A stretch of 36,077 nucleotides of DNA from a virus (lineage: Duplodnaviria; Caudoviricetes), in IMG/VR virus record IMGVR_UViG_3300043436_003045, positions 1 through 36,077 of that record, one strand, 5' to 3'. Each line of letters opens with the position of its first letter. Positions within the stretch are counted from its first letter, which is position 1. A program made the position numbers and the translations under genes. Below the pieces are notes generated by a model. The model made no database searches and had not been told where the DNA came from. It saw only the letters and a program-made list of their open reading frames with translations. Of this stretch, positions 6,611-36,077 are shown piece by piece.

Positions 6611-7408
6611 TCAGGAAGGCGAAACGATGCCGCCGCGCGCCGTGGCGCTGCCGCGTGTGTTGGTGCCGAAGCCGGACGGCATGTACTGCTGCCAGGCGTT
6701 GCGGCCCTGCGATGCCTGCCGCTTTTCGTACAACAGGCCCACGTTGCTGAACAGGTCGCCCACGCTGGTGCCGATGGCGCCCGACGTGGCCTTGTCGGCG
6801 TTCACGCGCATCTGGCCGAGAGCCGACGAGATGGCCGAACCCTGATCCATGCCGCTGTCGATGCTCTGCAGCAGCTGCAGCCGGGTGGCCTCGTTGTTGC
6901 CGCGCGCATCAGCCGCGGCGGCGTCGGCCTTGCCGCTGAGGTCCGTCAGGCCTTGCCCGTAGGTGCGGCCGAGCAGCGCGTTCTGGTCGATGTCCACGCT
7001 ACCGCCGTTCTGCCCACGTGCGAACAGCTCGAACTTGAGCTGGCGGCCGGCCTCGCCCTTCTGCTCGTCCAGGCGCCGCTTGCCGGCGTCATAGGCGCCG
7101 CTGCGCACCGAGCCGAACAGGGCCTCCAGGTCGCGCTTGTTCCTCTCCGCGTCGGCGGCCTGCTGCGCCTGCGCTGCAACCGCGGCGTCATAGCCGGCCT
7201 GGTCGAAACTCTCCACAGGAGGCAGCGCCGTGCCCGTGTCATCAGCCATGCCGCCCGGGGTGCTGGTCACGAACTTGGAGCGGTCCACAGTGCTGGCAGC
7301 CGGCGCAACGCCGAAAAGGACGTTCAGCGCCTGCCGCGCCCGCGCCTTCTCCGCATCTTGCCGGTCTTGCCGTTCGCCGAAACCGCCATCACCACCGCCG
7401 CCGCCCAT
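6611..7408 (-). CDS. Putative virion/ejection protein (265 aa)
   Basis: MGGGGGDGG N-terminus, helical, and located between the tail tube genes and the ejection genes. Confidence 0.5.
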   Translation of the reverse strand: MGGGGGDGGFGERQDRQDAEKARARQALNVLFGVAPAASTVDRSKFVTSTPGGMADDTGTALPPVESFDQAGYDAAVAAQAQQAADAERNKRDLEALFGSVRSGAYDAGKRRLDEQKGEAGRQLKFELFARGQNGGSVDIDQNALLGRTYGQGLTDLSGKADAAAADARGNNEATRLQLLQSIDSGMDQGSAISSALGQMRVNADKATSGAIGTSVGDLFSNVGLLYEKRQASQGRNAWQQYMPSGFGTNTRGSATARGGIVSPS

Positions 7409-7409
7409 A

Positions 7410-7898
7410 TCAGGCCCCCTTTGCTGGACCTACCCAGGCCCACACTTGCACGTCTTCCCCGTTGGCGCCACAGCCCCTGCGCACGCTTTCCAGGCTCAAC
7501 AGGCCCAGCCGTTTTGCGAACCGCTCCGCCCCGACCCAGCCCGAAAGCACATGCACCTCAATTCGGTGGACGTACTGAGGCCCCTTGGAATCGCTCGCCA
7601 CTGCAAGTACTTTGCGCGTTGCGCGCAGCACTTTTCGCCACGATTCACCGGTCAGGCCAGGCCGCGCCACCATCCACAGCAAACCAAGCCACGGCAAAGG
7701 CATGGACAGGCCGCCAATGGCCCAGGGCTGGCCGTTCTGCTCAAGCACCCAGCCTGGGCCGGACGTGCGCCAGCGGTCCACCGCGTACCACTCGCCAGGC
7801 TCCTGGCCCGTCATCGCGCGCACGCAGGCGGCATCCTCGGGCCGCATGTCGCCGCAGACGGCCAGGGCGTCGGCGAGCGTGAGGTCGCGGAGAGTCAC
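7410..7898 (-). CDS. Tail assembly protein, GNAT-like (T7 gp13-like position; 162 aa)
   Basis: Motifs DMRPEDAACV, WAIGG and AERFAKRLG resemble the acetyltransferase-like protein that follows the nozzle gene in podoviruses. Confidence 0.55.
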   Translation of the reverse strand: MTLRDLTLADALAVCGDMRPEDAACVRAMTGQEPGEWYAVDRWRTSGPGWVLEQNGQPWAIGGLSMPLPWLGLLWMVARPGLTGESWRKVLRATRKVLAVASDSKGPQYVHRIEVHVLSGWVGAERFAKRLGLLSLESVRRGCGANGEDVQVWAWVGPAKGA

Positions 7899-9376
7899 AC
7901 GCTGGCCGAGAGTTGGTGGAAGTAGAGCGTCGCCATGTCCAGCCCAAAAGCCTCATCGGCTGAGTGGCGGAAGCGCGGCGCGATGGCGGCAGAACTGACC
8001 TCTACCGGAATGACGGTCCCCGCCCGGGTGTCGCCGGTCACGGTGTACAAGATCGTCTCCTTGCCGGGGTCTGAAGGCTCGTACAGGTACGAGACATCGG
8101 CCGTGCCGCTGAACACGAAGTCAGCACCGTAGAACATCTTCTCGACGCCTGGCAGCTTGGCGTCTTGGAAAGCCATCTGCACATCCACGTCGATGCCGAC
8201 GCCCGCATCGGTGAAGGTCGCCGCGTCGAGCTCATACAGCGTCGAGGCGCTGCGCACATAGACCTTGCCGGCCACAGAGGTGATGCCCTTGATGAGGACG
8301 GGGAAGGTGTACTCGCTCCAGCAGGCCAGCTTGCTGGAGCGGCTGAAGCTGTAGGCGAACACGCGCGACGTGCCGGCGCTCTCGTAGATCAGCCAGTACT
8401 GCCCGAGCTGCTGCAGCCAGATGCCGCGCACCGGCTCTGCCGAGGTCGCCTCATGGGCCTGCTGCGCGGGCACAACCAGCTCATCGACCGGCACGCCGAC
8501 GTCCGTTTCGTCCACCCGCTCGACGTTCTCCTGCACGCTGATGGAGCGCACGCCGAACGGAGACGGGAACACCAGGTCGCGGTAGAAGCTGGCCATCCCC
8601 AGCGGGTGCGTCGTGCCCACGCCGTAGAGCCGGCGCCGGATCTGAGTCGCGGTCGGGTCGACTGCGGCGTCCCAGATTTGCACGCCCTCGGGGAACGTGA
8701 CCACCAGCGCGTCCTCGAAGCTGCCCACGCCCGTGGGGTCTGCCGTGGTGTCCTGCTGCAGGCTCACCGACAGAAAGCCGGCATCGCTGGCCGTGGTCCA
8801 GTCGCGCGGGGCGCCTGCTGCGCTGTAGCGCACGATGTCAGGGCCTGTCGTGAACACGCGGCTCGTCAGGAACGTGGCCGAGGGGCCGTGCGAGCAGTTG
8901 GAATCGGTGATGAGCGTGGTTCCGCCGCCGTCCAGGTAGTGATGGCGCGGCACATCCTTGACCACTGTGCGCGGAATGCCCGTCTGGCCCGGGGGATAGA
9001 CGAACGGCACGGCCGTGCGGTGCAGCGCCACCACGTAGGGGAATCCGAGCACCATTTTGGCGTAGTTGATGCCCACCAGCTCGGTGACGCCGCCGCCAGG
9101 GCTGAACGGGTTGAGCTGGAACACGCCGACGCCAGGCGGAGGCGTGAAGCTGCTGCCCACGGTCGTGAACACGACGAGACCGCCGTTCATGGACTCCAGG
9201 CCCACAGAGCCGGCCAGCGAGGTGCTCACCACCTTCAAGGCCGGCCGCTTCTTGATCTTCTTGCCGCTGGTGATGTAGGCGTTCTTCAACGTCCACAGGC
9301 GGTTGGCGTCCTGCACGCTCAGCGGCAGGCGCCGATCCAGGCCGCCGCCGTACTCCTTGTACGTGATCGCCGGCAT
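7895..9376 (-). CDS. Tail nozzle / tail tubular protein B-like (493 aa)
   Basis: Beta-rich. N-terminus YGGGLDRR...LKNAYITSGKKIKKRP and motif ACWSEY. Follows the adaptor gene. Confidence 0.65.
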   Translation of the reverse strand: MPAITYKEYGGGLDRRLPLSVQDANRLWTLKNAYITSGKKIKKRPALKVVSTSLAGSVGLESMNGGLVVFTTVGSSFTPPPGVGVFQLNPFSPGGGVTELVGINYAKMVLGFPYVVALHRTAVPFVYPPGQTGIPRTVVKDVPRHHYLDGGGTTLITDSNCSHGPSATFLTSRVFTTGPDIVRYSAAGAPRDWTTASDAGFLSVSLQQDTTADPTGVGSFEDALVVTFPEGVQIWDAAVDPTATQIRRRLYGVGTTHPLGMASFYRDLVFPSPFGVRSISVQENVERVDETDVGVPVDELVVPAQQAHEATSAEPVRGIWLQQLGQYWLIYESAGTSRVFAYSFSRSSKLACWSEYTFPVLIKGITSVAGKVYVRSASTLYELDAATFTDAGVGIDVDVQMAFQDAKLPGVEKMFYGADFVFSGTADVSYLYEPSDPGKETILYTVTGDTRAGTVIPVEVSSAAIAPRFRHSADEAFGLDMATLYFHQLSASV

Positions 9377-9379
9377 GGC

Positions 9380-10066
9380 TTAAACGTCCCGGCCCACGAC
9401 CGCGGGCTTGGTCGGCAGATCGGCCAGGGGCTGGCGGCGATACACCGCATCGCGCCCGCTGCCGAAGGACTGCCCGCGCAGGCTGGCCATCAGGGTGGTG
9501 AGCTGGCCCTGGTAGAGCGTGGCGTCCGGGTGCCGGTAGTGCGCCTTCGCGTTGGTGACGGCGTGCAGCAGCACCATCTCGTCATCCATCGTGGCGGCGT
9601 GGTTGTCTTCGGTGAAGGGCAACAGGTCGCGCACGAACCAGAAGCGGATGGTGTAGAGCTGGTCGGCCTTCGGGTAGATCAGCAGCTGGGCGTAGCGCTC
9701 GAACCGGGCCGGGAAAGACTGCGTGTCCATCTCGTTCCAGTGCTGCGTCTCGATGCCGTCATGCAGCCGGCGCCATTCGCCTGCGTACTCGGTTTCGATG
9801 CGCAGGATGCGCTGGTCGCGCGCGCAGCCGCTGGCGGTGCTGAACGTGCCCGTGGTCGGGTAGTCGAGCAGGTTCTGCCCAACGCCCAGGGTCACATCCT
9901 TGTAGTCGGTCAGGTGCTTCCAGTCCTGCGCCCGGTAGAGCTGGGCCTGCCCGTTGCGCAAGAAACTGTTGATCAGGGTCTGCGCGGCTCCGCTCGCACC
10001 TTGGGCGCCCATGCCAAGGCGGGCCATGACCTCGCTGCGCAGTTCGCCCAGGGTGCGGTAAGCCAT
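9380..10066 (-). CDS. Head-tail adaptor / tail tubular protein A-like (228 aa)
   Basis: N-terminus RTLGELRSEVMARLG and motif LIYPKAD. Position downstream of the capsid gene. Confidence 0.65.
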   Translation of the reverse strand: MAYRTLGELRSEVMARLGMGAQGASGAAQTLINSFLRNGQAQLYRAQDWKHLTDYKDVTLGVGQNLLDYPTTGTFSTASGCARDQRILRIETEYAGEWRRLHDGIETQHWNEMDTQSFPARFERYAQLLIYPKADQLYTIRFWFVRDLLPFTEDNHAATMDDEMVLLHAVTNAKAHYRHPDATLYQGQLTTLMASLRGQSFGSGRDAVYRRQPLADLPTKPAVVGRDV

Positions 10067-10075
10067 CGTCAGTCC

Positions 10076-10699
10076 TTACAGGGCAATCTCGACGCCGACT
10101 TCTTCAGCCAACTTGACCAGCGCCTCATGCTTCAGGCCCCGGAACTCGGCCCACGCCTTCTCGGCAGCCACACGCTCGCCGTCGCTGCTCTCGTGAGTCA
10201 CCAGAGGCAGCGCGTAGCCGTAGCTCAGGATGAGGTCGCGCAGTTGGTCTTCCGGCAGGTCGCCGAGCGTGGGCTGGCCCAGCACGCGGCGGAAATCACC
10301 CTTGCCGAAGCGGCCGTAGATGTGCTCGCAGTTCGGCTGGTTCACCTCGACGTGCCGGCCGTAGGCCTCGCACAGGCGCTGGTACTCGGACTGCGCGTCG
10401 CCGATGAAGACCCAGCCCAGGCGCATGTTCTCGCTCGGCGGGCGGATGTGGTCCTGCCGCTTGTTGTAGGGCATCACATCGGCGCTGGCCTTGGCCTTGT
10501 AGCCCTCGTCGAGCGTCTTCGACTCGACCTCCTTCACCTCGTCCTCACCGTGGATGAGCTGCAGAAGCGGCACTTCGTGGGCCCACACAACGCGCGGGGT
10601 GTCGGTGGTCTGGTCGCGTCGGATCGAAACCAGCACGCGGCGCGAGAGGATGGATTGCGACGGCTCGGCGGACTTTCGGGTCTGGGTAGCTGCGGGCAC
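10076..10699 (-). CDS. Hypothetical phage protein (207 aa)
   Basis: GTG start with AAGGAG RBS. Codon usage is like the neighbouring structural genes. Confidence 0.7.
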   Translation of the reverse strand: MPAATQTRKSAEPSQSILSRRVLVSIRRDQTTDTPRVVWAHEVPLLQLIHGEDEVKEVESKTLDEGYKAKASADVMPYNKRQDHIRPPSENMRLGWVFIGDAQSEYQRLCEAYGRHVEVNQPNCEHIYGRFGKGDFRRVLGQPTLGDLPEDQLRDLILSYGYALPLVTHESSDGERVAAEKAWAEFRGLKHEALVKLAEEVGVEIAL

Positions 10700-10725
10700 T
10701 TTGGGCTCCTTGGTGGCGGCGGATC

Positions 10726-10754
10726 AAAAAGGGGCCGGCACAGAGCACCGACCC
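10726..10754 (-). terminator. Intrinsic terminator after the capsid and HNH genes
   Basis: Minus strand GGGTCGGTGC-TCT-GTGCCGGCCC hairpin (G-U pairs included) followed by C and TTTTT. Confidence 0.65.
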
Positions 10755-10794
10755 AAGACCTCCGCGTCCGCCTGGCGCGTTGGCAACTGAAACA

Positions 10795-11409
10795 TCACTT
10801 CTGACCTCTGACGATCAAGCTCACATAGGTCTGGTCGCAGCCGAAGCGTTCGGCCAACTGCTGTTGGGTGAACTGGCCCGTCTCGTACAGCGCACGCATC
10901 TGGGCCCTCTGGTCATCGCTGACCTTTGGGCGCAGGTTGCGCGAGCCTTTCGGGCGCCCTGGCTTGCGGGGCGCAGCGTCGATCAGGTCGATTGCCGCGC
11001 TTGCCGCGTACCAGTTGCACTGCAAAGCCTCTGCCACTTGCCGCTTGGTCGAGCCAGCGCGCCACATCGTGGCGGCCAGCGCGATCTCTTCGGCAGTCAA
11101 CACCCGGCGGGCGGTCTGGCGACCGCGCTCCAAGATGTCGGCGTTGTTGTCCTCGTGATCGCCCACAAGGAGGTGCGCAGGGTTGCAGCAGCGCCGGTTG
11201 TCGCACTGATGACGAATGACCTTCCCGCGGGGGATTGGGCCGTGCACATGTGCGTAGGCGAGGCGGTGAGTTGCCACCACCTTGTCTCCAACACGCATAC
11301 GGCCGTACATGTCTTTCGTCACAGTCCCAAGCCAGTTCCAGCAGCCATTCGCGTCAATCTCGATGCGCTGCTTGAGTCGTTCAAAGGCGTCGTTGGCGGT
11401 TTGTTGCAT
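10795..11409 (-). CDS. Free-standing HNH homing endonuclease with C-terminal HTH domains (204 aa)
   Basis: CWNWLG...YG...HRLAY...HQCDNRRCCNPAHL...N..D is an HNH_3/His-Cys-like pattern. C-terminal TQQQLAERFGCDQTYVSLIVRG is an HTH. Confidence 0.9.
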   Translation of the reverse strand: MQQTANDAFERLKQRIEIDANGCWNWLGTVTKDMYGRMRVGDKVVATHRLAYAHVHGPIPRGKVIRHQCDNRRCCNPAHLLVGDHEDNNADILERGRQTARRVLTAEEIALAATMWRAGSTKRQVAEALQCNWYAASAAIDLIDAAPRKPGRPKGSRNLRPKVSDDQRAQMRALYETGQFTQQQLAERFGCDQTYVSLIVRGQK

Positions 11410-11410
11410 G

Positions 11411-11468
11411 GTGCCGGCGGGTCGTTGCAGAAGTTCTGCATTCTACGGCCCGCCAGCACTTCTGCAAC
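11411..11468 (-). promoter_or_regulatory. HNH control region: sigma70-like promoter, palindrome and alternative hairpins
   Basis: TTGCAG (11467-11462) -N16- TAGAAT (11445-11440). Palindrome TGCAGAAnTTCTGCA at 11426-11440. 11-bp inverted repeat at 11424-11434 / 11458-11468. Confidence 0.5.
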
Positions 11469-12533
11469 TTACGTCAACGCCAGAACGGCGTTTGCATTTC
11501 CCTGGTTGAGGGTGATCGCGCCGCGCCAGGTCAAAGCCCAATAATATTCGTACCGGTCATACGCCCGCGGCGGCTTGCGGCTGATCATGTCGTGGCCCTG
11601 CAGGGGCCGCAGGCGCAGCGTGTTGGTGTTGATGAAGTAGCAGCGCTTTTCCCAGGCCGTGGCCGGCGCGAAGCGCGCGTCCAGTTCCTGGAACTCGGGC
11701 GACCACTGCACCTCGACGCCCTGGAACGTCAGCACCGCGGTGCCGCCTTCCACGCGCTTCGTGTTGCTCGGGCCGAAGTCCATGCGGCCGTAGGTGTTGA
11801 GCACGAAGTTGCGGTAGCCGTCGATGAACTGCGAGCCGGCCACGATCAGGTCGGGCGAGCCGCCGGCACCAGCGCGCATGCACTGACGCCAGTTCACTTC
11901 CATCTGGTTGAGGATGGTGCCGGTGCTGGTCGTGGTGGTCAGGCCGGTGCTAACGTTGTTGCGCCAGTAGGCGTTGCTCGACGAGCTGCGGTCGATGCCG
12001 CCCACGGTGCCCGAGGTCGGGGTGAGCGACAGCAGCGCGTCCACGCCGGTCACAGCGTCGGTGCTCTGCGTGCCGTCCAGGTGCAGCTGGTAGCTGAACT
12101 GCTCCTGGAAGCCCAGGCGCAGGGCCTCGGCTTGCTCTTCCAGCAGGTTGGTGAGCTGGATCTTCTCGGCGTCGCTGGCCGAGCGCGCGGCGCTGGCATC
12201 GTCCACCACGATGATGCCGTTCTGCGCCAGGCGGTCTTCGTCCAGCGCCAGGCCGTCATGGCACGAGCGCCAGGCGTAGTTGGCCTGCTCGTTGGTGACG
12301 CGGCGGTTGTAGGTCACCACGGACGAGCCGTTGAACCACTGGAAGTTGGACGAGTAGCGCACGCGCAGCTGCTCGACGATGAACTGCTTGGCGCCGGGCG
12401 CCGACTTCTTCTTGCTCTGCAGGGCCTGCAGGATCGGGCGCTTGACCTCGATCTGGTCGACGGGCTTGTTGGCCAGGTAGAAGTCGAGACCGATCTTGCC
12501 GGCGTCGACGATTTCGGAACTGGTGAAAGGCAT
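11469..12533 (-). CDS. Major capsid protein (354 aa)
   Basis: Size, position directly after the scaffold gene, strong codon bias, GGAG RBS, and HK97-type podovirus capsid motifs GTVGGIDRS...YWRN and CYFINTNTLRL. Confidence 0.85.
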   Translation of the reverse strand: MPFTSSEIVDAGKIGLDFYLANKPVDQIEVKRPILQALQSKKKSAPGAKQFIVEQLRVRYSSNFQWFNGSSVVTYNRRVTNEQANYAWRSCHDGLALDEDRLAQNGIIVVDDASAARSASDAEKIQLTNLLEEQAEALRLGFQEQFSYQLHLDGTQSTDAVTGVDALLSLTPTSGTVGGIDRSSSSNAYWRNNVSTGLTTTTSTGTILNQMEVNWRQCMRAGAGGSPDLIVAGSQFIDGYRNFVLNTYGRMDFGPSNTKRVEGGTAVLTFQGVEVQWSPEFQELDARFAPATAWEKRCYFINTNTLRLRPLQGHDMISRKPPRAYDRYEYYWALTWRGAITLNQGNANAVLALT

Positions 12534-12713
12534 GGTGAATCTCCGGGATGCGTTGAATCGGGCTCTCGCCCACGGTTACCGGTGACGACTCGGCTACACG
12601 TCCAACGCCCGCGGTGAACTGGGCTCACACCATCCGCGCCGGTTTGGGTTGCCCCAGGCCCAGCGCGCGGCCTTGTTTGTGCGGTGCGCGACGCCGCGTT
12701 CAGCGCTGCGGGG
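12534..12713 (-). ncRNA. Candidate structured cis-regulatory RNA in the capsid leader
   Basis: 180-nt intergenic region with two GNRA tetraloop hairpins (TGGG-GCAA-CCCA; GGGC-GAGA-GCCC), a long-range helix GCGTTGGA/TTCAACGC and two similar 9-nt-loop hairpins. Confidence 0.5.
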
Positions 12714-13817
12714 TTACGCCTCCAGGCGCCGGCCCCACATGGCTTCTTGCATGCTCGTCGGCTTGGGTTGCCCCGAACCGGCGCCCATGGGTCGAAGCGG
12801 CGCCGCGGTTGGGGCCGCAGCGGCTGCAGGCTGGCGGAAGGCCAGCCCGGATTCCTTGATGAGCTCGTACTGCGTCTGCACCAGGGCCGGCCACTGCGAA
12901 GGCGGCACGCCCTGCAGCAGCTTCGGGATGCGAGGCAGAAGCAGCTTCTCGATGGCGCTGTAGTCCAGGTCGGTGGCGGCCATGCGCTTGCAGAACCGGT
13001 CGACCTCGACCTGCGCATCCTGCACCGCCTGGCCGTGCGCCTGCTCGGCCTGCTGGCTCTGCTGCTGGGCTTGCTGACGCTGCTGCAGCGCGGACTGCTG
13101 CTTGCGCTGGCGCGCGACCTCCAGCGCCGTGGCCTCGTCGATCAGCAGGCTGTCGACCTTCTGCCGCAGATCCGGGAACTCGGCCAGCGCGTCGACGCCG
13201 GGCAGCGTCTCGCCGGTCATCAGCGAAAGCTGCCGGAGCTGCTCGGTCAGGATCTGCTGCGCTGCCTTGAAGTCGCCGCGGTTGATCGCTCCGACCACGC
13301 TGGCGGCCTGCTCGAACTGCTCCCGCGTGATGCCGTTGCTCTGGAAGGTCTCGCGCACGTAGCTGAGCTGCTGCTCCGCTTGCTGCAGCTGCTCGTCGCG
13401 CTCCTTGATGCCGTTCGCCAACTTCTGGAAGCGCTCCTGCGCCTTGGCGCCCAGGCCCTCGGGCATGACCGTGAGGTCTTCCGGCGCGTCGGGCTTGACC
13501 GGCGCAGCGGGGGCCGCGGGCGCTGCCTGCGCTACGGCAGGCTGGCCCGGCGCGGCAGGCTCAGCCGGAGCGCCTTCCTTGCCCTTGAACCTGCCCAACT
13601 CGTCGCGCGCCATGCCCTGGCTGATCGCCTCCAGCATGGTGGTCGGTGCGGCAGGCTCTGTGCTTGCTGCAGGGGCCGCGACTGCGCCAGCATCGGCGAC
13701 GGCAGCTTCACCGCTCGGCCCCGCATCCAAGGCTGGGCCGCCTCCGCCCTCACCCTCGACGATGCCGAGGCGGGCGGTTGACAGGAAGAGCCGTAGGAGG
13801 ATGCGCAGCAGGTTCAT
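12714..13817 (-). CDS. Capsid scaffolding protein (367 aa)
   Basis: Pro/Ala-rich N-terminus with RDELGRF, ERFQKL coiled coil and Q-rich helices. Immediately upstream of the capsid gene. Confidence 0.75.
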   Translation of the reverse strand: MNLLRILLRLFLSTARLGIVEGEGGGGPALDAGPSGEAAVADAGAVAAPAASTEPAAPTTMLEAISQGMARDELGRFKGKEGAPAEPAAPGQPAVAQAAPAAPAAPVKPDAPEDLTVMPEGLGAKAQERFQKLANGIKERDEQLQQAEQQLSYVRETFQSNGITREQFEQAASVVGAINRGDFKAAQQILTEQLRQLSLMTGETLPGVDALAEFPDLRQKVDSLLIDEATALEVARQRKQQSALQQRQQAQQQSQQAEQAHGQAVQDAQVEVDRFCKRMAATDLDYSAIEKLLLPRIPKLLQGVPPSQWPALVQTQYELIKESGLAFRQPAAAAAPTAAPLRPMGAGSGQPKPTSMQEAMWGRRLEA

Positions 13818-13852
13818 GGCGGATGGATCGGTGTCGGTGTTTTGGTGCCGAC

Positions 13853-13884
13853 AGCATGCAGCGCCGCCTCTGCGGTTTTCCGCC
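13853..13884 (-). promoter_or_regulatory. Putative late promoter, copy 2 (GGCGGAAAAC-N16-CATGCT)
   Basis: Shared motif and spacing. Intergenic, upstream of the scaffold and capsid genes. Confidence 0.7.
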
Positions 13885-13888
13885 CGTT

Positions 13889-14836
13889 TCAGTCCATGAG
13901 CAGCAGCTCAGCAGCAGCCAGGGCGGCGCGGTTGTGCGCCTCGATGCGGCGTCGCCGCTGCTCGATCGCCGTGGCTTCGGCTTGGGCCATTGCGGATTCC
14001 TGAGCCGCCAGCGCAGCCTGCACTGCAGCCAGTGCCTGCGGATCGAATGCAGGCGCTGCGGGGCGTCGGGCTGGCGTCGGCAGCACATCGGCCAAGCGCA
14101 CAACGGGGCGCGTGGGCTCTGCAACGGCCGCAGGCGCAGAAACGGGCGCGACGGCAGCAGCGGGCTCAGGCGCTTGCGGGGTGACGGGCGCTTGCGGCTC
14201 TTCCTCGTCGCGCTGCTCTGGCCCCAGGTACAGACGGCGGCGCTTGCCCCGCGAGCTGGCCGCGTCAGCAGGCAGGGAGTTCGAGAAGAACAGCGGCGCC
14301 GCGTCGGCAGTGTGTGCGTGCGCAGCGTCTTCAACGGTCAGAGAGGTGGCGCCGTTGAAAACGATGGCCGGGCTGTCAACGCTGTGGATGTGCAGCGCAT
14401 CAAAAACCGCTAGTCCGCTGGAGGTGCTAAGGGCAAGCGCGTCGGCCGAGTGTGCGTGCGCTGCATCGGCGACAGCCAGCAGTGTCTGCCCGGCCACAGA
14501 GAGCGTCACGGCGTCTGCGGCATGGGTGTGCGCCGCATCGGCAACGGCGAGCGCGGCCGTGGTGCTCAGCGTAAGAGCGTCTGCCGCGTGCGAATGGCCT
14601 GCGTCGCTGACTTGCAGGGCGGACGCGGTGCTTAACGCAAGGCTGTCTGCGGCGTGGCCATGCGAAGCATCTGCGACGGCGAGCGTCGCGGCGACGTTCG
14701 CCACCAGGACCAGGTTGTCGGCGCTGTGTGCGTGAGCTGCTTCTGCGGCGCTGAGCGTGGCGCCGCCACCACCCCCCGCCGCATCAGGCCCAAGCCCGAG
14801 CGGCGTTATCCCAACCGGGGAAAGGCCAAGGCTCAC
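13889..14836 (-). CDS. Repeat-containing putative virion fibre/decoration protein (315 aa)
   Basis: Seven ~21-23 aa repeats of the form L.V.DA.HxHxAD...L, a Pro/Ala linker and a C-terminal coiled coil. Confidence 0.6.
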   Translation of the reverse strand: MSLGLSPVGITPLGLGPDAAGGGGGATLSAAEAAHAHSADNLVLVANVAATLAVADASHGHAADSLALSTASALQVSDAGHSHAADALTLSTTAALAVADAAHTHAADAVTLSVAGQTLLAVADAAHAHSADALALSTSSGLAVFDALHIHSVDSPAIVFNGATSLTVEDAAHAHTADAAPLFFSNSLPADAASSRGKRRRLYLGPEQRDEEEPQAPVTPQAPEPAAAVAPVSAPAAVAEPTRPVVRLADVLPTPARRPAAPAFDPQALAAVQAALAAQESAMAQAEATAIEQRRRRIEAHNRAALAAAELLLMD

Positions 14837-29729: not shown

Positions 29730-29971
29730 TCGAGATCGAACCCACCGAGCTGCCGGCCCTGCAGCGCCAGATCGCCGACGAGCGCGCGGCCAGCCGGCGC
29801 TGGCACGACACGCATCCGCACCCGCAGCACGGCACCGAAGGCTGCGCCGACACGGGCGACGAGCCGCGCCGCCCCCCGATGACCAAGGCCGAGGGCCGCC
29901 TGGTCTTCGCCATCTTCGCCGCCTCTGCCGCCGCGGTGCTCACCGCGCTGTGGCAGGCGCTCTTCCGCTGA
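29726..29971 (+). CDS. Small membrane protein (81 aa)
   Basis: GTGA overlap and a C-terminal hydrophobic helix. Confidence 0.55.
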   Translation: MIEIEPTELPALQRQIADERAASRRWHDTHPHPQHGTEGCADTGDEPRRPPMTKAEGRLVFAIFAASAAAVLTALWQALFR

Positions 29972-29994
29972 ACCCTCACCCCACTGGAGACCCT

Positions 29995-30903
29995 GTGAAC
30001 GCACCCCACGCACTTCAACCCCTGGCCGCCGCTGTGCACGCGCAGTCGGCCAGCGAACTCGACCGCCTGCTGCAGGGCGATTACAGCCCGCGCTACATGA
30101 TGGAGGGGAACAACCTCGACAAGGCGCTGACGCTGGCCACCCAGATGGCCGAGGCCCGGCTGACGATCCCCAAGCACCTGGTGGGCAACGTCGGCGACTG
30201 CCTGGCCATCGTCACGCAGGCGATGCTGTGGAATATGAACCCCTTCGCGGTGGCGCAGAAGACGCACATCGTGAACGGGACGCTGGGCTACGAGGCGCAG
30301 CTGGTCAACGCCGTGGTGCAGAACAGCGGCGCCGTGCGCGGTGCGCCGGTCTACGAGTACCGCGGCGAGGGCAACAGCCTGGAGTGCCGCGTCGGCTTCG
30401 TGCTGCGCCGCCAGGCCAAGGTGACGTTCGGCGAGTGGCTGAGCATCAACGCGCCCACCACGAAGAACAGCCCGCTGTGGAAGACGAACCCGAAACAGCA
30501 GCTGGGCTACCTGCAGATCAAGAACTGGGCACGCGCCTACTGCCCGGGCGCCATCCTGGGCGTCTACACGGTCGACGAGCTGGCCGATGGCCTGGCTGAT
30601 GCGGCCGTCGATGCTGCGGCCACGCCCTCCCCCGCGCCGGCGCCGCGTGCGGCCGAGCTGCCCTTCTACGCCATGGCCGACTTCGAGAAGAACCTGCCGG
30701 CCTGGACGAAGCTCGTGGCCGACGGCAAGAAAACGGCGCAGGCCCTGCTGGCCACGCTGAGCACGAAGGCGCAGTTCACCGAGGAACAGAAGGCCGCTGT
30801 GCTGTCGCTGAAGCCGCGCCCGGCTGATCCGCCCCTGCCGCCGGCCGGCGCGCACGACGACTTCGTGGCCGACATGGAAGCCGCCGAAGGGGTGCAGCAA
30901 TGA
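29995..30903 (+). CDS. recT: RecT-family single-strand annealing protein (302 aa)
   Basis: GTG 29995 with GGAG RBS. IPKHL.GN.GDCLAIV.QA..W.MNPFAVAQKTH..NG.LGYEAQL and WAR.YCPGAILGVYT.DE motifs. Confidence 0.85.
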   Translation: MNAPHALQPLAAAVHAQSASELDRLLQGDYSPRYMMEGNNLDKALTLATQMAEARLTIPKHLVGNVGDCLAIVTQAMLWNMNPFAVAQKTHIVNGTLGYEAQLVNAVVQNSGAVRGAPVYEYRGEGNSLECRVGFVLRRQAKVTFGEWLSINAPTTKNSPLWKTNPKQQLGYLQIKNWARAYCPGAILGVYTVDELADGLADAAVDAAATPSPAPAPRAAELPFYAMADFEKNLPAWTKLVADGKKTAQALLATLSTKAQFTEEQKAAVLSLKPRPADPPLPPAGAHDDFVADMEAAEGVQQ

Positions 30904-32597
30904 TCACGCACCAGCTCACCCAGGGCAGCCCCGAGTGGCTGGCCTACCGCGCGCAGCACTTCAACGCCAGCGACGCGCCAGCCATGATGGGCTGCAGCCC
31001 GTACAAGACCCGCGCCGAGCTGCTGCGCGAGCTGCACACTGGCGTGGCCGCCGAGGTCGACGTGGCCACGCAGAAGCGCTTCGACAACGGCCACCGCGCC
31101 GAAGCGCTGGCCCGGCCGCTGGCCGAGAAGATCATCGGCGACGAGCTCTACCCGGTGACGGGCAGCCTGGGCCGGCTCTCGGCCAGCTTCGACGGGCTGA
31201 CGCTCGACGAGTCCGAGGGCTTCGAGCACAAGGCCCTGAACGCCGACATCCGCGCGGCCTTCGCCGTGATCGACAAGCTGGTGGGCGGCGACGACACCTA
31301 CCCCGGCCAGCAGTTGCCGCTCTACCACCGCGTGCAGATGGAGCAGCAGCTGCACATCAGCGGCGCCTCGCGCATCCTGTTCATGGCCACCGAGTGGACG
31401 GCCGAGGGCGAGCTGGTCGACGAGCGAAGCTGCTGGTACTACCCCGACGAGGTGTTGCGCGGCGAGATCCTGGCCGGCTGGGCGCAGTTCGAGCGCGACC
31501 TGGCCGCCTACGTGCTGCCCGAGGCCGCCGCGCCGGCACCGGTGGGCAAGGCCCCCGACATGCTGCCGGCCCTGCGCATCGAGGTGACCGGCGCCGTCAC
31601 CGCCAGCAACCTGGCCGAGTTCAAGGCCACGGCCCTGGGCGCGATCCGCAGCGTGAACCGCAATCTGGCCACCGATCAGGACTTCGCCGACGCCGAGAAG
31701 GCCGTGAAGTGGTGCGCCGACGTGGAGAGCCGGCTGAAGGCTGCGAAGGAGCACGCGCTCAGCCAGACCACCAGCATCGAGGCGCTGTTCCGCGCCATCG
31801 ACGAAATCAGCGGCGAGGCGCGCACCGTGCGCCTGGATCTGGACAAGCTGGTGACGCGCCGCAAGGGCGAGGTGAAGGAAGAGGCCGTCGCCAAGGCCCG
31901 CCGCGCGCTGGACCAGCACATCGCCCAGCTCAACGCCGAGATCGCGCCCACGCGCGTGCCGGTGCCGGTGGCCGACTTCGCCGGCTGCATCAAGGGCCTG
32001 AAGAGCGTGGCCAGCATGCAGGACAAGCTCGACGGTCTCCTGGCCACGGCCAAGATCGCGGCCGAGGCCGATGCGCGCGCCATCCGCGCGAACGTGGCCA
32101 CCTTCCACTCCGAGGCCGCGGGCTTCGAGTTCCTGTTCGCCGACCTGGGCCAGGTGGTGCACAAGGCAGCCGACGACTTCAAGGCGCTGGTGGTGTCGCG
32201 CATCGCCACGCACAAGGCGGCCGAGGCAGCGAAGGAGGCCAAGCGCAAGGCCGACGAGGAGGCGCGCATCGCGGCGGCTGCCGAGCAGGCCCGGCGCGAG
32301 GAAGAAGCGCGCCAGCAGGCGCTGCGGCGGCAGCAGGCCGAAGAGGCTGCGCGCCTGGCAGCCCCAGCTGTGGCCGCGGCAGCGGCGCCGGCTCCGACCC
32401 CAGCACCCGCGCCCGTGGTTGCGGCCCCTGCCCTGGCAGCCGTCAAGGAATCCTTGACAGCTGAGCCCACGCCCGCCGACACCCTGCGCGCCCTGGCCGC
32501 CGAAGCCCGCGCGAGCCGCTTCCCCACGAACCCCAAGATGGGCCCGGAGTGGTGGGCCCGCTGGTTCGCCGCCGTCGATGCGCTGGAGGTGGCGTGA
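30900..32597 (+). CDS. YqaJ/lambda-exonuclease-like protein with long C-terminal coiled coil (565 aa)
   Basis: QGSPEWLAYR...ASDA..MMG.SPYKT, ASFDG, EHK and QMEQQL motifs. Confidence 0.9.
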   Translation: MITHQLTQGSPEWLAYRAQHFNASDAPAMMGCSPYKTRAELLRELHTGVAAEVDVATQKRFDNGHRAEALARPLAEKIIGDELYPVTGSLGRLSASFDGLTLDESEGFEHKALNADIRAAFAVIDKLVGGDDTYPGQQLPLYHRVQMEQQLHISGASRILFMATEWTAEGELVDERSCWYYPDEVLRGEILAGWAQFERDLAAYVLPEAAAPAPVGKAPDMLPALRIEVTGAVTASNLAEFKATALGAIRSVNRNLATDQDFADAEKAVKWCADVESRLKAAKEHALSQTTSIEALFRAIDEISGEARTVRLDLDKLVTRRKGEVKEEAVAKARRALDQHIAQLNAEIAPTRVPVPVADFAGCIKGLKSVASMQDKLDGLLATAKIAAEADARAIRANVATFHSEAAGFEFLFADLGQVVHKAADDFKALVVSRIATHKAAEAAKEAKRKADEEARIAAAAEQARREEEARQQALRRQQAEEAARLAAPAVAAAAAPAPTPAPAPVVAAPALAAVKESLTAEPTPADTLRALAAEARASRFPTNPKMGPEWWARWFAAVDALEVA

Positions 32598-33034
32598 TGG
32601 GCCTGCGCTGCACCAAATGCGGCCGGCGCGGGCACGTCATGGAGCGCTGCACCGTTGACCTGCAAGCCGCCGCCCGCGAAGCTTGCGCGGCCATCCTGCG
32701 GGTCGCGCGTCAGTACCCGCAGGGGATTGAGCGCCGCACGCTGCTGGACGAGGCCGGCATCAAGCATGACCGGGGATTCAAGATTCTCATAGCCCTGCGC
32801 AAATCGGGCGAGGTGGTCAAGCGGCAGACCGTAGACCGGCAGACGCTGTTCACCGCAGCCGAGCACGAAGCCGAGATGCTGGCCCATGTGGAGGCAGCAG
32901 CGAAGACCGCAGCAAACAAGGCCCCCGGCCGCCAGTGGCTCGAGGGCAACACATGGACCCCGCCAGCGCCGCGAATCCCCAGCGTGTGGCACCTGGCGCA
33001 GATGGCCGCCAACGAAGAACGGAGAGCATCATGA
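32597..33034 (+). CDS. CCHC zinc-knuckle plus wHTH-like protein (145 aa)
   Basis: ATG 32597 (TGATG, GGAGG RBS). CTKCGRRGHVMERC matches C-X2-C-X4-H-X4-C. Confidence 0.65.
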   Translation: MGLRCTKCGRRGHVMERCTVDLQAAAREACAAILRVARQYPQGIERRTLLDEAGIKHDRGFKILIALRKSGEVVKRQTVDRQTLFTAAEHEAEMLAHVEAAAKTAANKAPGRQWLEGNTWTPPAPRIPSVWHLAQMAANEERRAS

Positions 33035-33384
33035 GCAAGACCGAGGCCGGGCCGGTGGCGCAAGACTGGCTGAAGGCGCGCATTGACGAAGAGATGGCGG
33101 AATACAGCGCCGGGGCCTACGCCGACCATGGGAGCGCCCGCGACCAGCTTGCGCTGTTTGCCGCTGACCTGATGCTCGCCGCCCACCCGCCCGCACAAGA
33201 GCCGGTGCCCGCTGTTGGCTGGACTGGCAACGCCGATGCAGACCTCGCGCTGATCCTGCTGGATCGTCTGGACGTGACCGTCGAAGACACGGCGCGAGTC
33301 GATCAACTGGAGGGCCTTGTGCGCAAGCTGGCCGCCACCCACCCCACGCCAGCCGAGCGCGCCACCCTGAAAGGCCAGCCATGA
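33031..33384 (+). CDS. Hypothetical protein (117 aa)
   Basis: ATGA overlap and GGAG RBS. Confidence 0.6.
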   Translation: MSKTEAGPVAQDWLKARIDEEMAEYSAGAYADHGSARDQLALFAADLMLAAHPPAQEPVPAVGWTGNADADLALILLDRLDVTVEDTARVDQLEGLVRKLAATHPTPAERATLKGQP

Positions 33385-34046
33385 AAGAGCGCCCCATCCT
33401 TTTCAGCGCGCCGATGGTGCGCGCGATCCTGGCCGGCACGAAGACGCAGACGCGCCGGGCCATGCGAGACCAGCCATGCGAGTTGCTGGACTTCAACCGA
33501 GGCGGGTTGTCGATCAGGGTGCGCGGGGCGGTGTACCAAGCATTTAGCCCGACGCTTCCGCCTGTTCGGTGCCCCTACGGCCAGCCCGGCGACCGGCTGT
33601 GGGTGCGCGAGACCTTCGCCAAGATCGACGGCCAGACGCAGCCCTGGATCGAGACCGACTACCGCGCAACCTACTCCCACGGCGACCGCTTGGGCGACAC
33701 CCTGGGCGTGAAGAAGCGTTGGACGCCGGCCATCCACATGCCACGCGCCGCCAGCCGCATCACCCTGGAGGTCGCCGGCGTGCGCGTCGAGCGGCTGCAG
33801 GACATCAGCGAGGCGGATGCCCAGGCCGAAGGCTGCACCATGAATCACAACGGCTACTTCTGGGGAGGCCCACATGCAGTCAGCGGCTTGAAGCAGATGG
33901 CCACGGCATCGTCCGCCTACCGCGATCTGTGGGAGTCGATCAACGGCCCCGGCTCCTGGGGCGCGAACCCCTGGGTGTGGGTGGTCGAGTTCAAGAAGGT
34001 CGAAGGCGGCGCAGCCATCGCCAAGACCCAAGGGAGTGCGAATTGA
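33381..34046 (+). CDS. ASCH/PUA-like phage protein (221 aa)
   Basis: MKERPILFSAPMVRAILAGTKTQTRR, CPYGQPGDRLWVRET, IHMPRAASRI.LE...VRVERLQDISE.DA.AEG and NPWVWVVEF. Confidence 0.85.
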   Translation: MKERPILFSAPMVRAILAGTKTQTRRAMRDQPCELLDFNRGGLSIRVRGAVYQAFSPTLPPVRCPYGQPGDRLWVRETFAKIDGQTQPWIETDYRATYSHGDRLGDTLGVKKRWTPAIHMPRAASRITLEVAGVRVERLQDISEADAQAEGCTMNHNGYFWGGPHAVSGLKQMATASSAYRDLWESINGPGSWGANPWVWVVEFKKVEGGAAIAKTQGSAN

Positions 34047-34255
34047 TTGCCTGGATTCTGCGTAGGCTCGGCCCGCACTACTTGGTGCACCTGCTGATCG
34101 ACGGCATGCACGCCAATGTCTTCGTGGCCGGTTCGCTGGGCAAGTTCGCGGCAGAGTCACGGGCCAAGAAGCGACGCATTGTGATCGTGGGCGCGTGGCG
34201 CGTGAGTCGGCGCGATTACTTGGCCGGCACCAGCGCAGTGGCGGCTAACGAATAG
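34043..34255 (+). CDS. Hypothetical protein (70 aa), ends inside the first attC-like site
   Basis: TTG 34043 overlaps the upstream TGA, with AGGGAG RBS. Reads ...GCT AAC GAA TAG. Confidence 0.55.
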   Translation: MIAWILRRLGPHYLVHLLIDGMHANVFVAGSLGKFAAESRAKKRRIVIVGAWRVSRRDYLAGTSAVAANE

Positions 34256-34311
34256 GTTCCGCGCGACCGTAGGCGCAGCCGTAGGGCGTCGCGCCGACCG
34301 GGCAGTTATGC
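34243..34311. other. attC-like site a (69 bp, degenerate)
   Basis: GGCTAAC...GCGCGAC/GTCGCGC stem...GTTATGC. L boxes are imperfect. Confidence 0.65.
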
Positions 34312-34427
34312 AGCGCCCTGGTGGCGCACTACAGGAGATGGAAGATGGACAGGAAAACTGCGAACAGAGAATGGCGCGACGTAACGCGCGGCGCTCCCGA
34401 AGGCGCACCGACCGGGCGCACCGTACA
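34304..34427 (+). repeat. 124-bp direct repeat, copy 1 (start of cassette A)
   Basis: Identical to 35954-36077 (offset 1650). Confidence 0.95.
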
Positions 34428-34626
34428 TGCGTTTGCGCAGCGCGTTGAGGCGCTGGCGATTGCCGGCTGCGACAAGCGACACGCTGCCACTAAGGCTGTG
34501 GGCGGCCAGCTTGGCAATGTGGCCTTCAATCTCGCGCAGCGCGTGGGTCAGCCGATCAGCACACACGACGCCGAGATTCTGGACAAGCTGCGGCGCGAGT
34601 GGGACGCGGCTGTTGGTGCTGCATAA
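34345..34626 (+). CDS. Cassette A hypothetical protein (93 aa)
   Basis: ATG 34345 with AGGAG 7 nt upstream. The TAA stop is part of GCATAAC. Confidence 0.7.
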   Translation: MDRKTANREWRDVTRGAPEGAPTGRTVHAFAQRVEALAIAGCDKRHAATKAVGGQLGNVAFNLAQRVGQPISTHDAEILDKLRREWDAAVGAA

Positions 34627-34720
34627 CGTGGGAGCTACGGCCGACGCAAACGGCGCCGGGCTGTAGCCACAGAGACAACGTGACCGCCGTTTGCGGTCGG
34701 CCTTGAGCGACGGGTTAGGC
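34621..34720 (-). other. attC-like site b (100 bp)
   Basis: Minus strand reads GCCTAAC-5nt-GCT[C]AAGGCCGAC...GTCGGCCGTAGC-6nt-GTTATGC. Confidence 0.85.
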
Positions 34721-34739
34721 CCGTTGGTGGAGAAACGCA

Positions 34740-34931
34740 ATGACCGAGTATTACCACACCCTGATTGAAAAAGGCGGCAAAGTGCTGCGCAGCTATGGCG
34801 ATGTGGTCCTGGAAACGGACTACCAGATTCTGGGCCACAAGGACAACGAAGCGCAGAGCCCACCCGACAAGCAATGGATCGGCTGGAAAACGGTCCCGTA
34901 CCCGGCGCCGACTTTTGTTCGCTTGCCTTGA
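34740..34931 (+). CDS. Cassette B hypothetical protein (63 aa)
   Basis: GGAG RBS. Fills the space between sites b and c. Confidence 0.7.
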   Translation: MTEYYHTLIEKGGKVLRSYGDVVLETDYQILGHKDNEAQSPPDKQWIGWKTVPYPAPTFVRLP

Positions 34932-34933
34932 GG

Positions 34934-35029
34934 GCCTAACGTTTGAGCTAAGCCGGCACTGCCGGCACAGGAGTTGAAATGACCACAGAAAGTACGCCGG
35001 CAGTGCTCGGCTTGAGCGAGGGGTTAGGC
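34934..35029 (-). other. attC-like site c (96 bp)
   Basis: Minus strand reads GCCTAAC-CCCTC-GCT[C]AAGCCG[A]GCACTGCCGGC...GCCGGCAGTGCCGGCTTAGC-TCAAAC-GTTAGGC, a textbook attC layout. Confidence 0.9.
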
Positions 35030-35323
35030 CTCGACCGCGAAAGGCTAGCAGACGATGCTATGCGCCGAAGGGCAGAAAGGTTTGCCCACAGAAACCATAA
35101 AAGGTTCGCTGTTGATTGGATTGGAGAGGCAACGCAGAACACCCGGATTGTGTCGGCCGACACTCCGCGCGAAGCGGCTGTTATCGTGGCTGGCGTTGAT
35201 TGGGCAAAGATAGGGCCGCCCAAATGGAGCAGCAATCCAACATACGCGGGCACATACCTTGTCAACTGCTACGAGGTGGATGGTTGTTTCGGGCGTCGGA
35301 TGATCGTGACTGAAGAGGCCTAA
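34979..35323 (+). CDS. Cassette C hypothetical protein (114 aa), start codon inside attC c
   Basis: AGGAG and ATG 34979 lie in the loop of site c. The body is AT-richer. The TAA stop is part of GCCTAAC. Confidence 0.7.
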   Translation: MTTESTPAVLGLSEGLGLDRERLADDAMRRRAERFAHRNHKRFAVDWIGEATQNTRIVSADTPREAAVIVAGVDWAKIGPPKWSSNPTYAGTYLVNCYEVDGCFGRRMIVTEEA

Positions 35324-35383
35324 CGCTTGAACTAAAGCGGACCGGCACGCAGTGACGGGTCCGCGTTCAGTGAAGGGTTAGGG
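35318..35383 (-). other. attC-like site d (66 bp)
   Basis: Minus strand reads CCCTAAC-5nt-ACT[G]AACGCGGACC...GGTCCGCTTTAGT-6nt-GTTAGGC. Confidence 0.8.
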
Positions 35384-35400
35384 CGCCAGAGCCGAAGCGA

Positions 35401-35457
35401 AAAATAGTTTGCGTGTTACAAAATAGTTGTTGACGCTGGCGGCTGCTGTGCTACATT
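35401..35457 (+). promoter_or_regulatory. Cassette D internal sigma70-like promoter
   Basis: TTGACG (35430-35435) -N16- TACATT (35452-35457) with extended TGn. Upstream AAAATAGTT occurs twice (35401 and 35420). Confidence 0.65.
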
Positions 35458-35493
35458 AACACCCATCGCAACACGCAACCCGGAGCAAGCAAC

Positions 35494-35703
35494 ATGACCA
35501 CTCAGCAAACCTTCACAGTGGCCACGATCCACGCGCCTTTCGTCAAGTCCGCTTTGCGCGCGCAAGCTGTCGCGCAAAAGCAAGGCAAGCCGGCCTACGT
35601 GGTGCTTGGCTGCAAGGCGCAGGTTTATGGCCGCTTCCCCGGTGTGTGGTGCCATCGAGTGCATGCAGACGGTCGCGTCGATTGCTGCGTGATTGAAGCA
35701 TGA
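35494..35703 (+). CDS. Cassette D gene 1, hypothetical (69 aa)
   Basis: GGAG RBS, downstream of the internal promoter. Confidence 0.65.
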   Translation: MTTQQTFTVATIHAPFVKSALRAQAVAQKQGKPAYVVLGCKAQVYGRFPGVWCHRVHADGRVDCCVIEA

Positions 35704-35882
35704 ACGACAAAAGCAAAGGGGGGCGCCCCCCCGCACCACCCGGCCTGCGCCGGGTAAACGTGCCGCTGCGCCTGCCCACATGGCAGGTGCAGTGGATGGC
35801 GCAGCAGCCCGAGACGCCTGCGGAGTTGATCGAAGCCGCGCTGCTGAAGGCGCACAAGCTGCGCCCGCCGCGTGCGCCCTAA
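35700..35882 (+). CDS. Cassette D gene 2, ribbon-helix-helix-like DNA-binding protein (60 aa)
   Basis: GGRPP....RRVNVPLRLPTW...W pattern, ATGA overlap, and TAA stop inside CCCTAAC. Confidence 0.65.
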   Translation: MNDKSKGGRPPAPPGLRRVNVPLRLPTWQVQWMAQQPETPAELIEAALLKAHKLRPPRAP

Positions 35883-35961
35883 CGATAGTTTGAGCAGCGC
35901 CCGCGTGGCGCTGCCGGAGTGAGCTACGCCGCTGGGCGTCTGCTCGAAACGCGAGTTATGC
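35877..35961 (-). other. attC-like site e (85 bp)
   Basis: Minus strand reads GCATAAC-5nt-TTT[C]GAGCAG[A]CGCCC...GGGCGCTGCTCAAA-5nt-GTTAGGG. Confidence 0.85.
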
Positions 35962-36077
35962 AGCGCCCTGGTGGCGCACTACAGGAGATGGAAGATGGAC
36001 AGGAAAACTGCGAACAGAGAATGGCGCGACGTAACGCGCGGCGCTCCCGAAGGCGCACCGACCGGGCGCACCGTACA
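35954..36077 (+). repeat. 124-bp direct repeat, copy 2 (second copy of cassette A, truncated by the window end)
   Basis: Identical to 34304-34427, including the RBS and ATG (35995). Confidence 0.95.

Follow-up and report, generated by a model that had tools for sequence, protein, structure and literature searches.

In the phage arrays studied here, attC sites of the Burkholderiales type appear to be exchanged at both of their ends: at the left box (AA|C) and also, commonly, at the right box (G|TT), the non-canonical end that is rarely used in host integrons. With somewhat more than even confidence, we favor the reading that these exchanges are made by a host integron integrase (IntI) cutting either folded strand, and that the terminal repeat of the array described below reflects an assembly walk into a second phage. 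How genes become joined to attC sites is an open question. In the integron model a gene and its attC form one unit, since IntI uses a single strand; natural arrays with about a third of exchanges at the other end would show that this unit can be dismantled and rebuilt.

The array lies at the end of the viral record IMGVR_UViG_3300043436_003045, a linear record of a lake phage that is estimated to be 85% complete and ends inside the array; its 36,077 nucleotides are referred to as the window. Terminase and major head genes are on the - strand of the window, and genes for RecT-like and RecE-like proteins are on the + strand, just upstream of the array (Table 1). Five hairpin sites (a to e) were identified in 32001-36077, of which a was called at the looser threshold and added by hand at the stricter one, and none was called on either strand of 1-29000. 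With five attC-like sites and no intI nearby in the record, the array is a CALIN; it does not appear to be a complete integron with intI, attI and Pc platform, as no integrase was found in the record. No match to the tyrosine recombinase family (PF00589) was found in the window record, at its estimated 85% completeness, or in the complete record G005. Genes A to D were assigned to no Pfam or PHROG family, no Rfam family came near its gathering score, and no match was found in cultured phages. The AT-rich leader of segment D (35384-35493) contains, by eye, TTGACG and TACATT hexamers and is possibly a promoter of its own. Elsewhere in the window, on the - strand, an ORF of the structural region holds five diverged 51-nt repeats (14303-14767), and an HNH endonuclease gene (10795-11409) directly follows the major head gene.

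Table 1. Features of the attC array and of the genes upstream of it, in window coordinates
Feature	Coordinates	Strand	Remarks
RecT-like annealing protein	29950..30903	+	phrog_561, E 6.9e-66; agent in a rival explanation
RecE-like exonuclease	30900..32597	+	phrog_7655, E 2.5e-182; agent in a rival explanation
Site a, first, degenerate attC-like	34243..34311	+	weak fold; best register places the bulge on the left arm
Leader with RBS after the GTT of site a	34305..34344	+	first 23-25 nt common to unrelated genes
Gene A, 93 aa, without family	34345..34626	+	stop TAA within left R box of b
Site b, reversed attC	34621..34720	+	6+5 spacers, extrahelical G; 3 upstream and 2 downstream partners
Gene B, 63 aa	34740..34931	+	occurs behind two different sites
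Site c, reversed attC	34934..35029	+	extrahelical G and T 6 bp apart; RBS and ATG in loop; 3 upstream and 3 downstream partners
Gene C, 114 aa	34979..35323	+	start inside site c, frame runs through right R box
Site d, reversed attC	35318..35383	+	extrahelical C, without T; 4 upstream and 4 downstream partners
Gene D1, 69 aa, without family	35494..35703	+	
Gene D2, 60 aa, without family	35700..35882	+	stop within left R box of e
Site e, reversed attC	35877..35961	+	native partner of A on sequence evidence; minimum-energy fold is a full hairpin on the - strand only
Second copy of A, truncated	35954..36077	+	124 nt, cut off at contig end

Sites b, c, d and e have RYYYAAC...GTTRRRY ends, spacers of 5-6 nt and a paired L box, and their extrahelical base lies on the right arm of the + strand (for e, in the 5+5 register), which is the bottom-strand geometry as a passage of PMC5027507 defines it. 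The preliminary description had assigned this geometry to the + strand and the canonical cut to the left AA|C, and the layout of arms and extrahelical bases bears this out. Site a is degenerate: it lacks this placement of the extrahelical base, the bulge being on the left arm in its best register, folds no better than shuffled sequences (z 0.38/-0.37) and, with a modelled pfold of 0.0004 on the + strand and 0.023 on the - strand, is predicted to favor the latter. The left-arm motif of related phage arrays recurs in arrays of Rubrivivax/Burkholderiaceae and other Burkholderiales (at least 240 loci in a motif scan), and IntI scored over the TIGR02249 cut-off in all five motif-bearing host genomes tested. 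Of 421 unique phage sites, 336 have a gene start on the motif strand and 5 have one on the opposite strand, while in 243 host segments the longest ORF is on the opposite strand in 190 and on the motif strand in 35 (a stricter gene-start rule is weak for hosts, at 46 vs 24 of 426). Because phage genes start on the motif strand while host ORFs lie opposite, the phage sites are, judged by sequence, host-type attC sites with reversed genes, lying on the strand that bacterial integrons recombine. The canonical cassette, in which the gene is on the top strand and upstream of its own attC, does not appear to describe these arrays, whose genes lie on what is predicted to be the bottom strand. The sedentary chromosomal integrons of Rubrivivax/Burkholderiaceae (L124, G007-G010) have the same arm motifs, spacers and extrahelical G, cassette ends that are inverted repeats, and IntI in 5/5 genomes; they differ in having genes on the other strand and in site length, with a median of 129 nt against 93.5 nt in phages. 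One attC of a host chromosomal array (L161 orientation, ~2261-2380) is itself inverted relative to its neighbors.

In 38 of 160 site-gene junctions the predicted gene start falls inside the site, with a frame that runs through the right box, and these cases are split over two frames. At 34979-35029 of the window, and at many other loci, sites provide N-termini ending in LSEGLG or LERGVR motifs, two frames being open through the right box.

Exchange was analyzed in a general set of 326 phage and metagenome sequences (1,065 site calls, overlaps included) and 72 host sequences (642 calls). Some sites escape the site caller, loci that overlapped were collapsed on the basis of sequence, and no cases were dropped before gene starts, gene ends and breakpoints were counted. 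More than one type of upstream site was found at 10 of 428 phage gene starts vs 1 of 449 host gene starts of the same attC family, and more than one type of downstream site at similar numbers of gene ends (16/428 in phages, 17/440 in hosts). The phage-host contrast yields Fisher P values of 0.016 by groups and 0.034 by links, with host pairs that are mostly within-genome and phage pairs that are between-genome. In a smaller first set, whose host pairs were again mostly within-genome, near-identical whole cassettes had exchanged their own upstream site for another in 6 of 18 phage pairs (covering 4 of 10 segments) vs none of 18 host pairs; host cassettes kept their own attC in 17 of 18 pairs, the remaining one being ambiguous. 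One of the eight right-hand cases from the first pass had a hybrid interior and was not counted. A hybrid site is seen on comparing L044:7374-7484 with L045:4691-4801, which have the same right part and gene and a different left arm, as expected of a crossover inside the stem.

BLAST breakpoints inside arrays (n=108) coincided with the left box in 58 cases and, in 25, with the right box, which takes up 4.3% of the length; of the others, 3 were inside sites, 2 in leaders (both starts, no ends) and 20 in segments, many of them visibly at uncalled sites. Clean indels (n=6) were left-type in five cases and right-type in one. In the latter, 373 bp present in L061/L540 are missing from L032, which retains site c (window GG|GTTAGGC) and has flanks 100% and 99.96% identical; the deletion, which lies between 20-nt near-repeats, fuses the start codon of site c in frame to the next gene. 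No segment among 317 was found in both directions. When the same stem is followed by different genes, 38 of 50 pairs have an unaltered right spacer, and the left spacer is retained just as often (50 of 66). Hosts, too, have identical sites in front of different genes (16/438). Because of the gene starts with two sites and the breakpoints at the other box, the canonical rule of a single mobile unit, made up of gene and attC and cut at R' alone, does not seem to hold for phage arrays. Judged from these comparisons, exchange at the non-canonical end does take place in this phage family, and commonly so, but in host integrons it is rare.

These counts bear on two earlier proposals. Right-hand exchange had been ascribed to top-strand recombination or to a recombinase with opposite strand choice; such exchange does recur, but an enzyme of purely opposite choice does not fit, since left-hand cuts are the majority. 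Alternative junctions were likewise expected at G|TT rather than at AA|C, and those at G|TT are indeed present (25/108), but those at AA|C are more frequent (58/108).

In the window, gene A stands behind both a and e. A single gene behind two unrelated sites does require right-hand exchange, and such exchange recurs in related phages, but the junction singled out as odd in the preliminary description, D-e-A, appears to be the native one. L045 and L046 become identical to the window from the left AAC of e onward, and e-A thus travels as a canonical unit (B|e-A in L045), as does c-C in L012. In G005, an 82% homolog of A is preceded by a site similar to e (0 of 1000 shuffles) but not to a (168 of 1000). 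Because e-A moves at AA|C and the site of the A homolog resembles e rather than a, the sequences indicate that the native unit is e-A, with a-A being derived; A would have gained site a by one right-hand event. The other contexts of site a amount to only two records, both with a-A. The description of a and e as otherwise unrelated was nearly right, with the qualification that their interiors are 59% identical (9 of 1000 shuffles reach the score) and their left spacers similar. The repeat does not, as was claimed, fix the crossover, which is bounded on the left only (at -1), since the first 23-25 nt of the A leader, which follow it, are shared with unrelated genes: they were found in 25 distinct contexts among sequences selected for this leader, and in three of these contexts the site in front is a-like (L078, L083 and L084).

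The repeat itself is as first reported: 35954-36077 equals 34304-34427 over exactly 124 nt, the preceding base differs, and the copy ends at the contig end. The units cut at G|TT (34305, 34714, 35023, 35377 and 35955) are confirmed as 409+309+354+578=1650. An overlap at a contig end equal to the assembler's largest k-mer is plausible, although 124 is not matched exactly. The e-A junction is a real join and not an artefact of one assembly, being found in L044, L045, L046 and run X1, and the a-A junction occurs outside the window assembly in L042, L043 and runs X1-X4, X8 and X13. The two junctions belong to different backgrounds. Of the window backbone, which excludes the array, 28,255 bp have a match of at least 95% in G004. 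L043 is 99.96% identical over 30321-34951 and then continues a-A-b-B-d-other; B is also joined straight to d in runs X3, X4, X5 and X8. G001 matches 173 bp of backbone at 95% or more, yet 1,774 of 1,835 array bases, and carries b-B-c-C-d-D-e-A, the same as the window from 34624 on except at 35726, where the window has a private base, and then another site. Beyond the truncated copy, A after a (window, G004, L043) and A after e (G001, G002) differ at 3 bases. Run X1 holds both entries into A, with contig depths of 26.7 on the a side, 38.7 for A, 33.9 for B, 9.8 for C and 13.9 for D (weak evidence, with one figure per contig). These data fit two phages sharing A and B, and not a circle or a fixed duplication; the repeat was probably produced by an assembly walk from the window phage (a-A-b-B-d) into the array of a second phage (b-B-c-C-d-D-e-A). 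The earlier choice between a duplication and an excised circle would then give way to two phages whose A alleles differ at three sites, and the activity called recent would date back at least 3 substitutions in A rather than to this sample.

Two other accounts of the repeat were considered. In one, which we regard as rather unlikely, the window is a genuine recombinant phage, one that acquired c-C-d-D-e-A via b-B from a G001-like phage and hence carries A twice. Both junctions are real, ~320 bp of identity over b-B would be available, the private base at 35726 fits, and the depths in X2 (151.7, 293.6, 225.4 and 134.6) are compatible with a true duplication; against this, L043 has B joined directly to d on the same backbone, that joint is seen in four runs, C and D are shallower than the a side in X1, and the contig ends inside the repeat. 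In the contig-level data, no listed piece spans the stretch of a true tandem duplication; runs X6 and X13 contain pieces only, and the parts left uncovered there are not evidence of absence. The other account, an excised A-B-C-D circle that was closed at G|TT and ended the assembly, fits the sum of the unit lengths and the right-hand excision known from L032, but is hardly credible: e-A is chromosomal in two other phages, there with a different next site and the other A allele, and a circle should lift C and D above the backbone, while in X1 they are lower.

Under the preferred reading, the major route would be recombination of + strand site pairs at AA|C, which moves units of a site and its gene, and the minor route, perhaps one event in three, recombination of - strand pairs at G|TT, which moves units of a gene and the next site. 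Excision pairs two sites on one strand, and from passages on the published mechanism (PMC3458562, PMC12614218) + pairs would yield AA|C joints and - pairs G|TT joints, orientation being kept by both. Both routes used in turn would uncouple genes from sites. With the start codon inside about a quarter of the sites, an exchange on the right would also replace the translation start and N-terminus. The recombinase must mostly act in trans, because IntI was found in only 1 of 44 viral records and in none of 7 near-complete ones. As regards strand choice, IntI1 is described as preferring the bottom strand by several orders of magnitude in a passage of PMC5027507 and 1000-fold in one of PMC3458562. 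Folding tests of phage vs host sites provided no structural reason for a more relaxed choice. The strand energy gap is -2.2 kcal/mol in phage sites vs -9.4 in host sites, the phage value equaling the mobile-integron mean of 2.12 given in a passage of PMC5027507, but phage and host sites do not differ in three length bins below 115 nt, and the modelled top/bottom folding ratio is ~1 in both sets; folding asymmetry as the cause is thus unsupported. Extrahelical T is commoner in phage than in host sites. Pairing is more extensive between the two ends of a segment than between those of one site (8.7 vs 5.6 nt, n=321), but core complementarity fails to discriminate left from right cuts because both keep the ends of a segment together.

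The right-hand swaps could instead be the work of RecT or Erf, by annealing or slippage on the conserved ~20-nt block of right arm, spacer and R box and on shared leaders, with IntI making only the left-hand cuts. RecT is encoded in the window and G005, and Erf in G001 and G002, upstream of the arrays; passages of PMC2327257 report that Red recombines 22%-diverged DNA with joints in blocks down to 2 bp, and phage annealing would explain the phage-host contrast. Five of ten right-hand swaps share 11-13 nt left of GTT (three with an uncommon spacer), the L032 deletion has its 20-nt near-repeat and A its shared leader, but the other five swaps share only 1-2 nt, and the same source puts the minimal homology for Red at about 30 bp and RecET activity on 5-13 bp at ~1e-8. 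Breakpoint ends also number 0 in leaders vs 16 at the right box, and site d, whose arm is atypical, nevertheless has four downstream partners that diverge within 5-6 nt of the G. We consider this explanation, a serious rival and the main one, unlikely, if less so than the others; a mixture of IntI and annealing routes is possible. Were annealing the whole cause, the result would be more ordinary, and the attC arms would be no more than homology linkers. A known parallel is Red/RecET mosaicism (Martinsohn et al. 2008, PMC2327257), in which modules are exchanged by phage annealing proteins where homology is short or diverged; the passages concerned do not predict joints piled up at two R boxes.

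A specialized phage IntI or other recombinase, with relaxed or opposite strand choice and acting in trans, seems improbable. One array-bearing record, G032, does encode an IntI over the cut-off, about 50-52% identical to five host IntIs, but its rarity among the viral records, the absence of a tyrosine recombinase from the window and from complete G005 and the dominance of left-hand cuts, which a purely opposite enzyme acting alone could not produce, all argue against it. No phage-encoded recombinase was found in the window or G005, and the integrase of G002 is about 18 kb from its array. The G032 IntI (L375, G032:C1:35186-35857) is downstream of the array, in gene direction, and truncated where the contig ends, with two methyltransferase-like ORFs immediately upstream. 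Very improbable, finally, is that some right-hand swaps arise when the preferred strand is cleaved in its L box, the right spacer going with the gene. The uncommon spacer shared in three swaps and the ends of identity inside the spacer in 5 of 16 cases would fit, but no hairpin-head swap was found, discordance of right spacers equals the left baseline (24% each), and A could not be explained in this way, since its two spacers differ.

The reading that IntI cuts either strand departs from known systems in several respects. The phage CALINs of Qi et al. 2023 (PMC9892861) are likewise attC clusters in phages without an integrase, and the phage sites tested there recombined with IntI1, with top strands recombining less than bottom strands; the passages of that paper considered here describe neither reversed genes nor exchange at both ends. 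Top-strand (R'') recombination, as passages of Nivina et al. 2016 (PMC5027507) present it, shares the cut in R'', here the right-hand G|TT, and a selectivity that varies among sites, but concerns attI x attC, is orders of magnitude rarer and yields inversion, whereas here both partners would be top strands and orientation would be kept. Insertion at attG (bioRxiv 10.1101/2022.09.11.507474) is similar in that IntI joins attC to short non-attC targets; the passages concerned describe the bottom strand only, which would give no same-direction G|TT joints unless the polarity of a site were flipped, as that of a may have been. A literature search, with most subscription journals outside it, found nothing on reversed phage arrays or two-ended exchange.

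The arrays of G001 (7086-13980), G002 and G003 lie on differing backbones (RecT, Erf, DNA polymerase) and have cassettes in common that are 99-100% identical; among the 16 sites of G001, three occur twice, with neighbors that differ between the copies. Unrelated phages thus trade near-identical accessory genes at attC sites. A tblastn search of host arrays with 165 phage segments returned 3 matches, none of them a demonstrated inverted copy. More tentatively, and perhaps less probably than not, lake phages may share a library that borrows an integrase, with hairpins and genes as separate modules: bottom-strand cuts would shuffle units of a site and its gene, whereas top-strand cuts would re-pair genes with sites and exchange their start signals and N-termini. 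If this is true, it would be through the top-strand join that a gene acquires its attC, and natural populations would be showing that step at work. For testing gene-attC joining, concrete substrates are at hand in sites c, d and e and in the L032/L061 pair. The leader of gene A is also found as a spacer (L070:2499-2531) in a 49-repeat CRISPR array, presumably of a type I-C-like repeat, beside a cas1-like ORF, and one such leader-matching spacer could hit many cassette-bearing phages.
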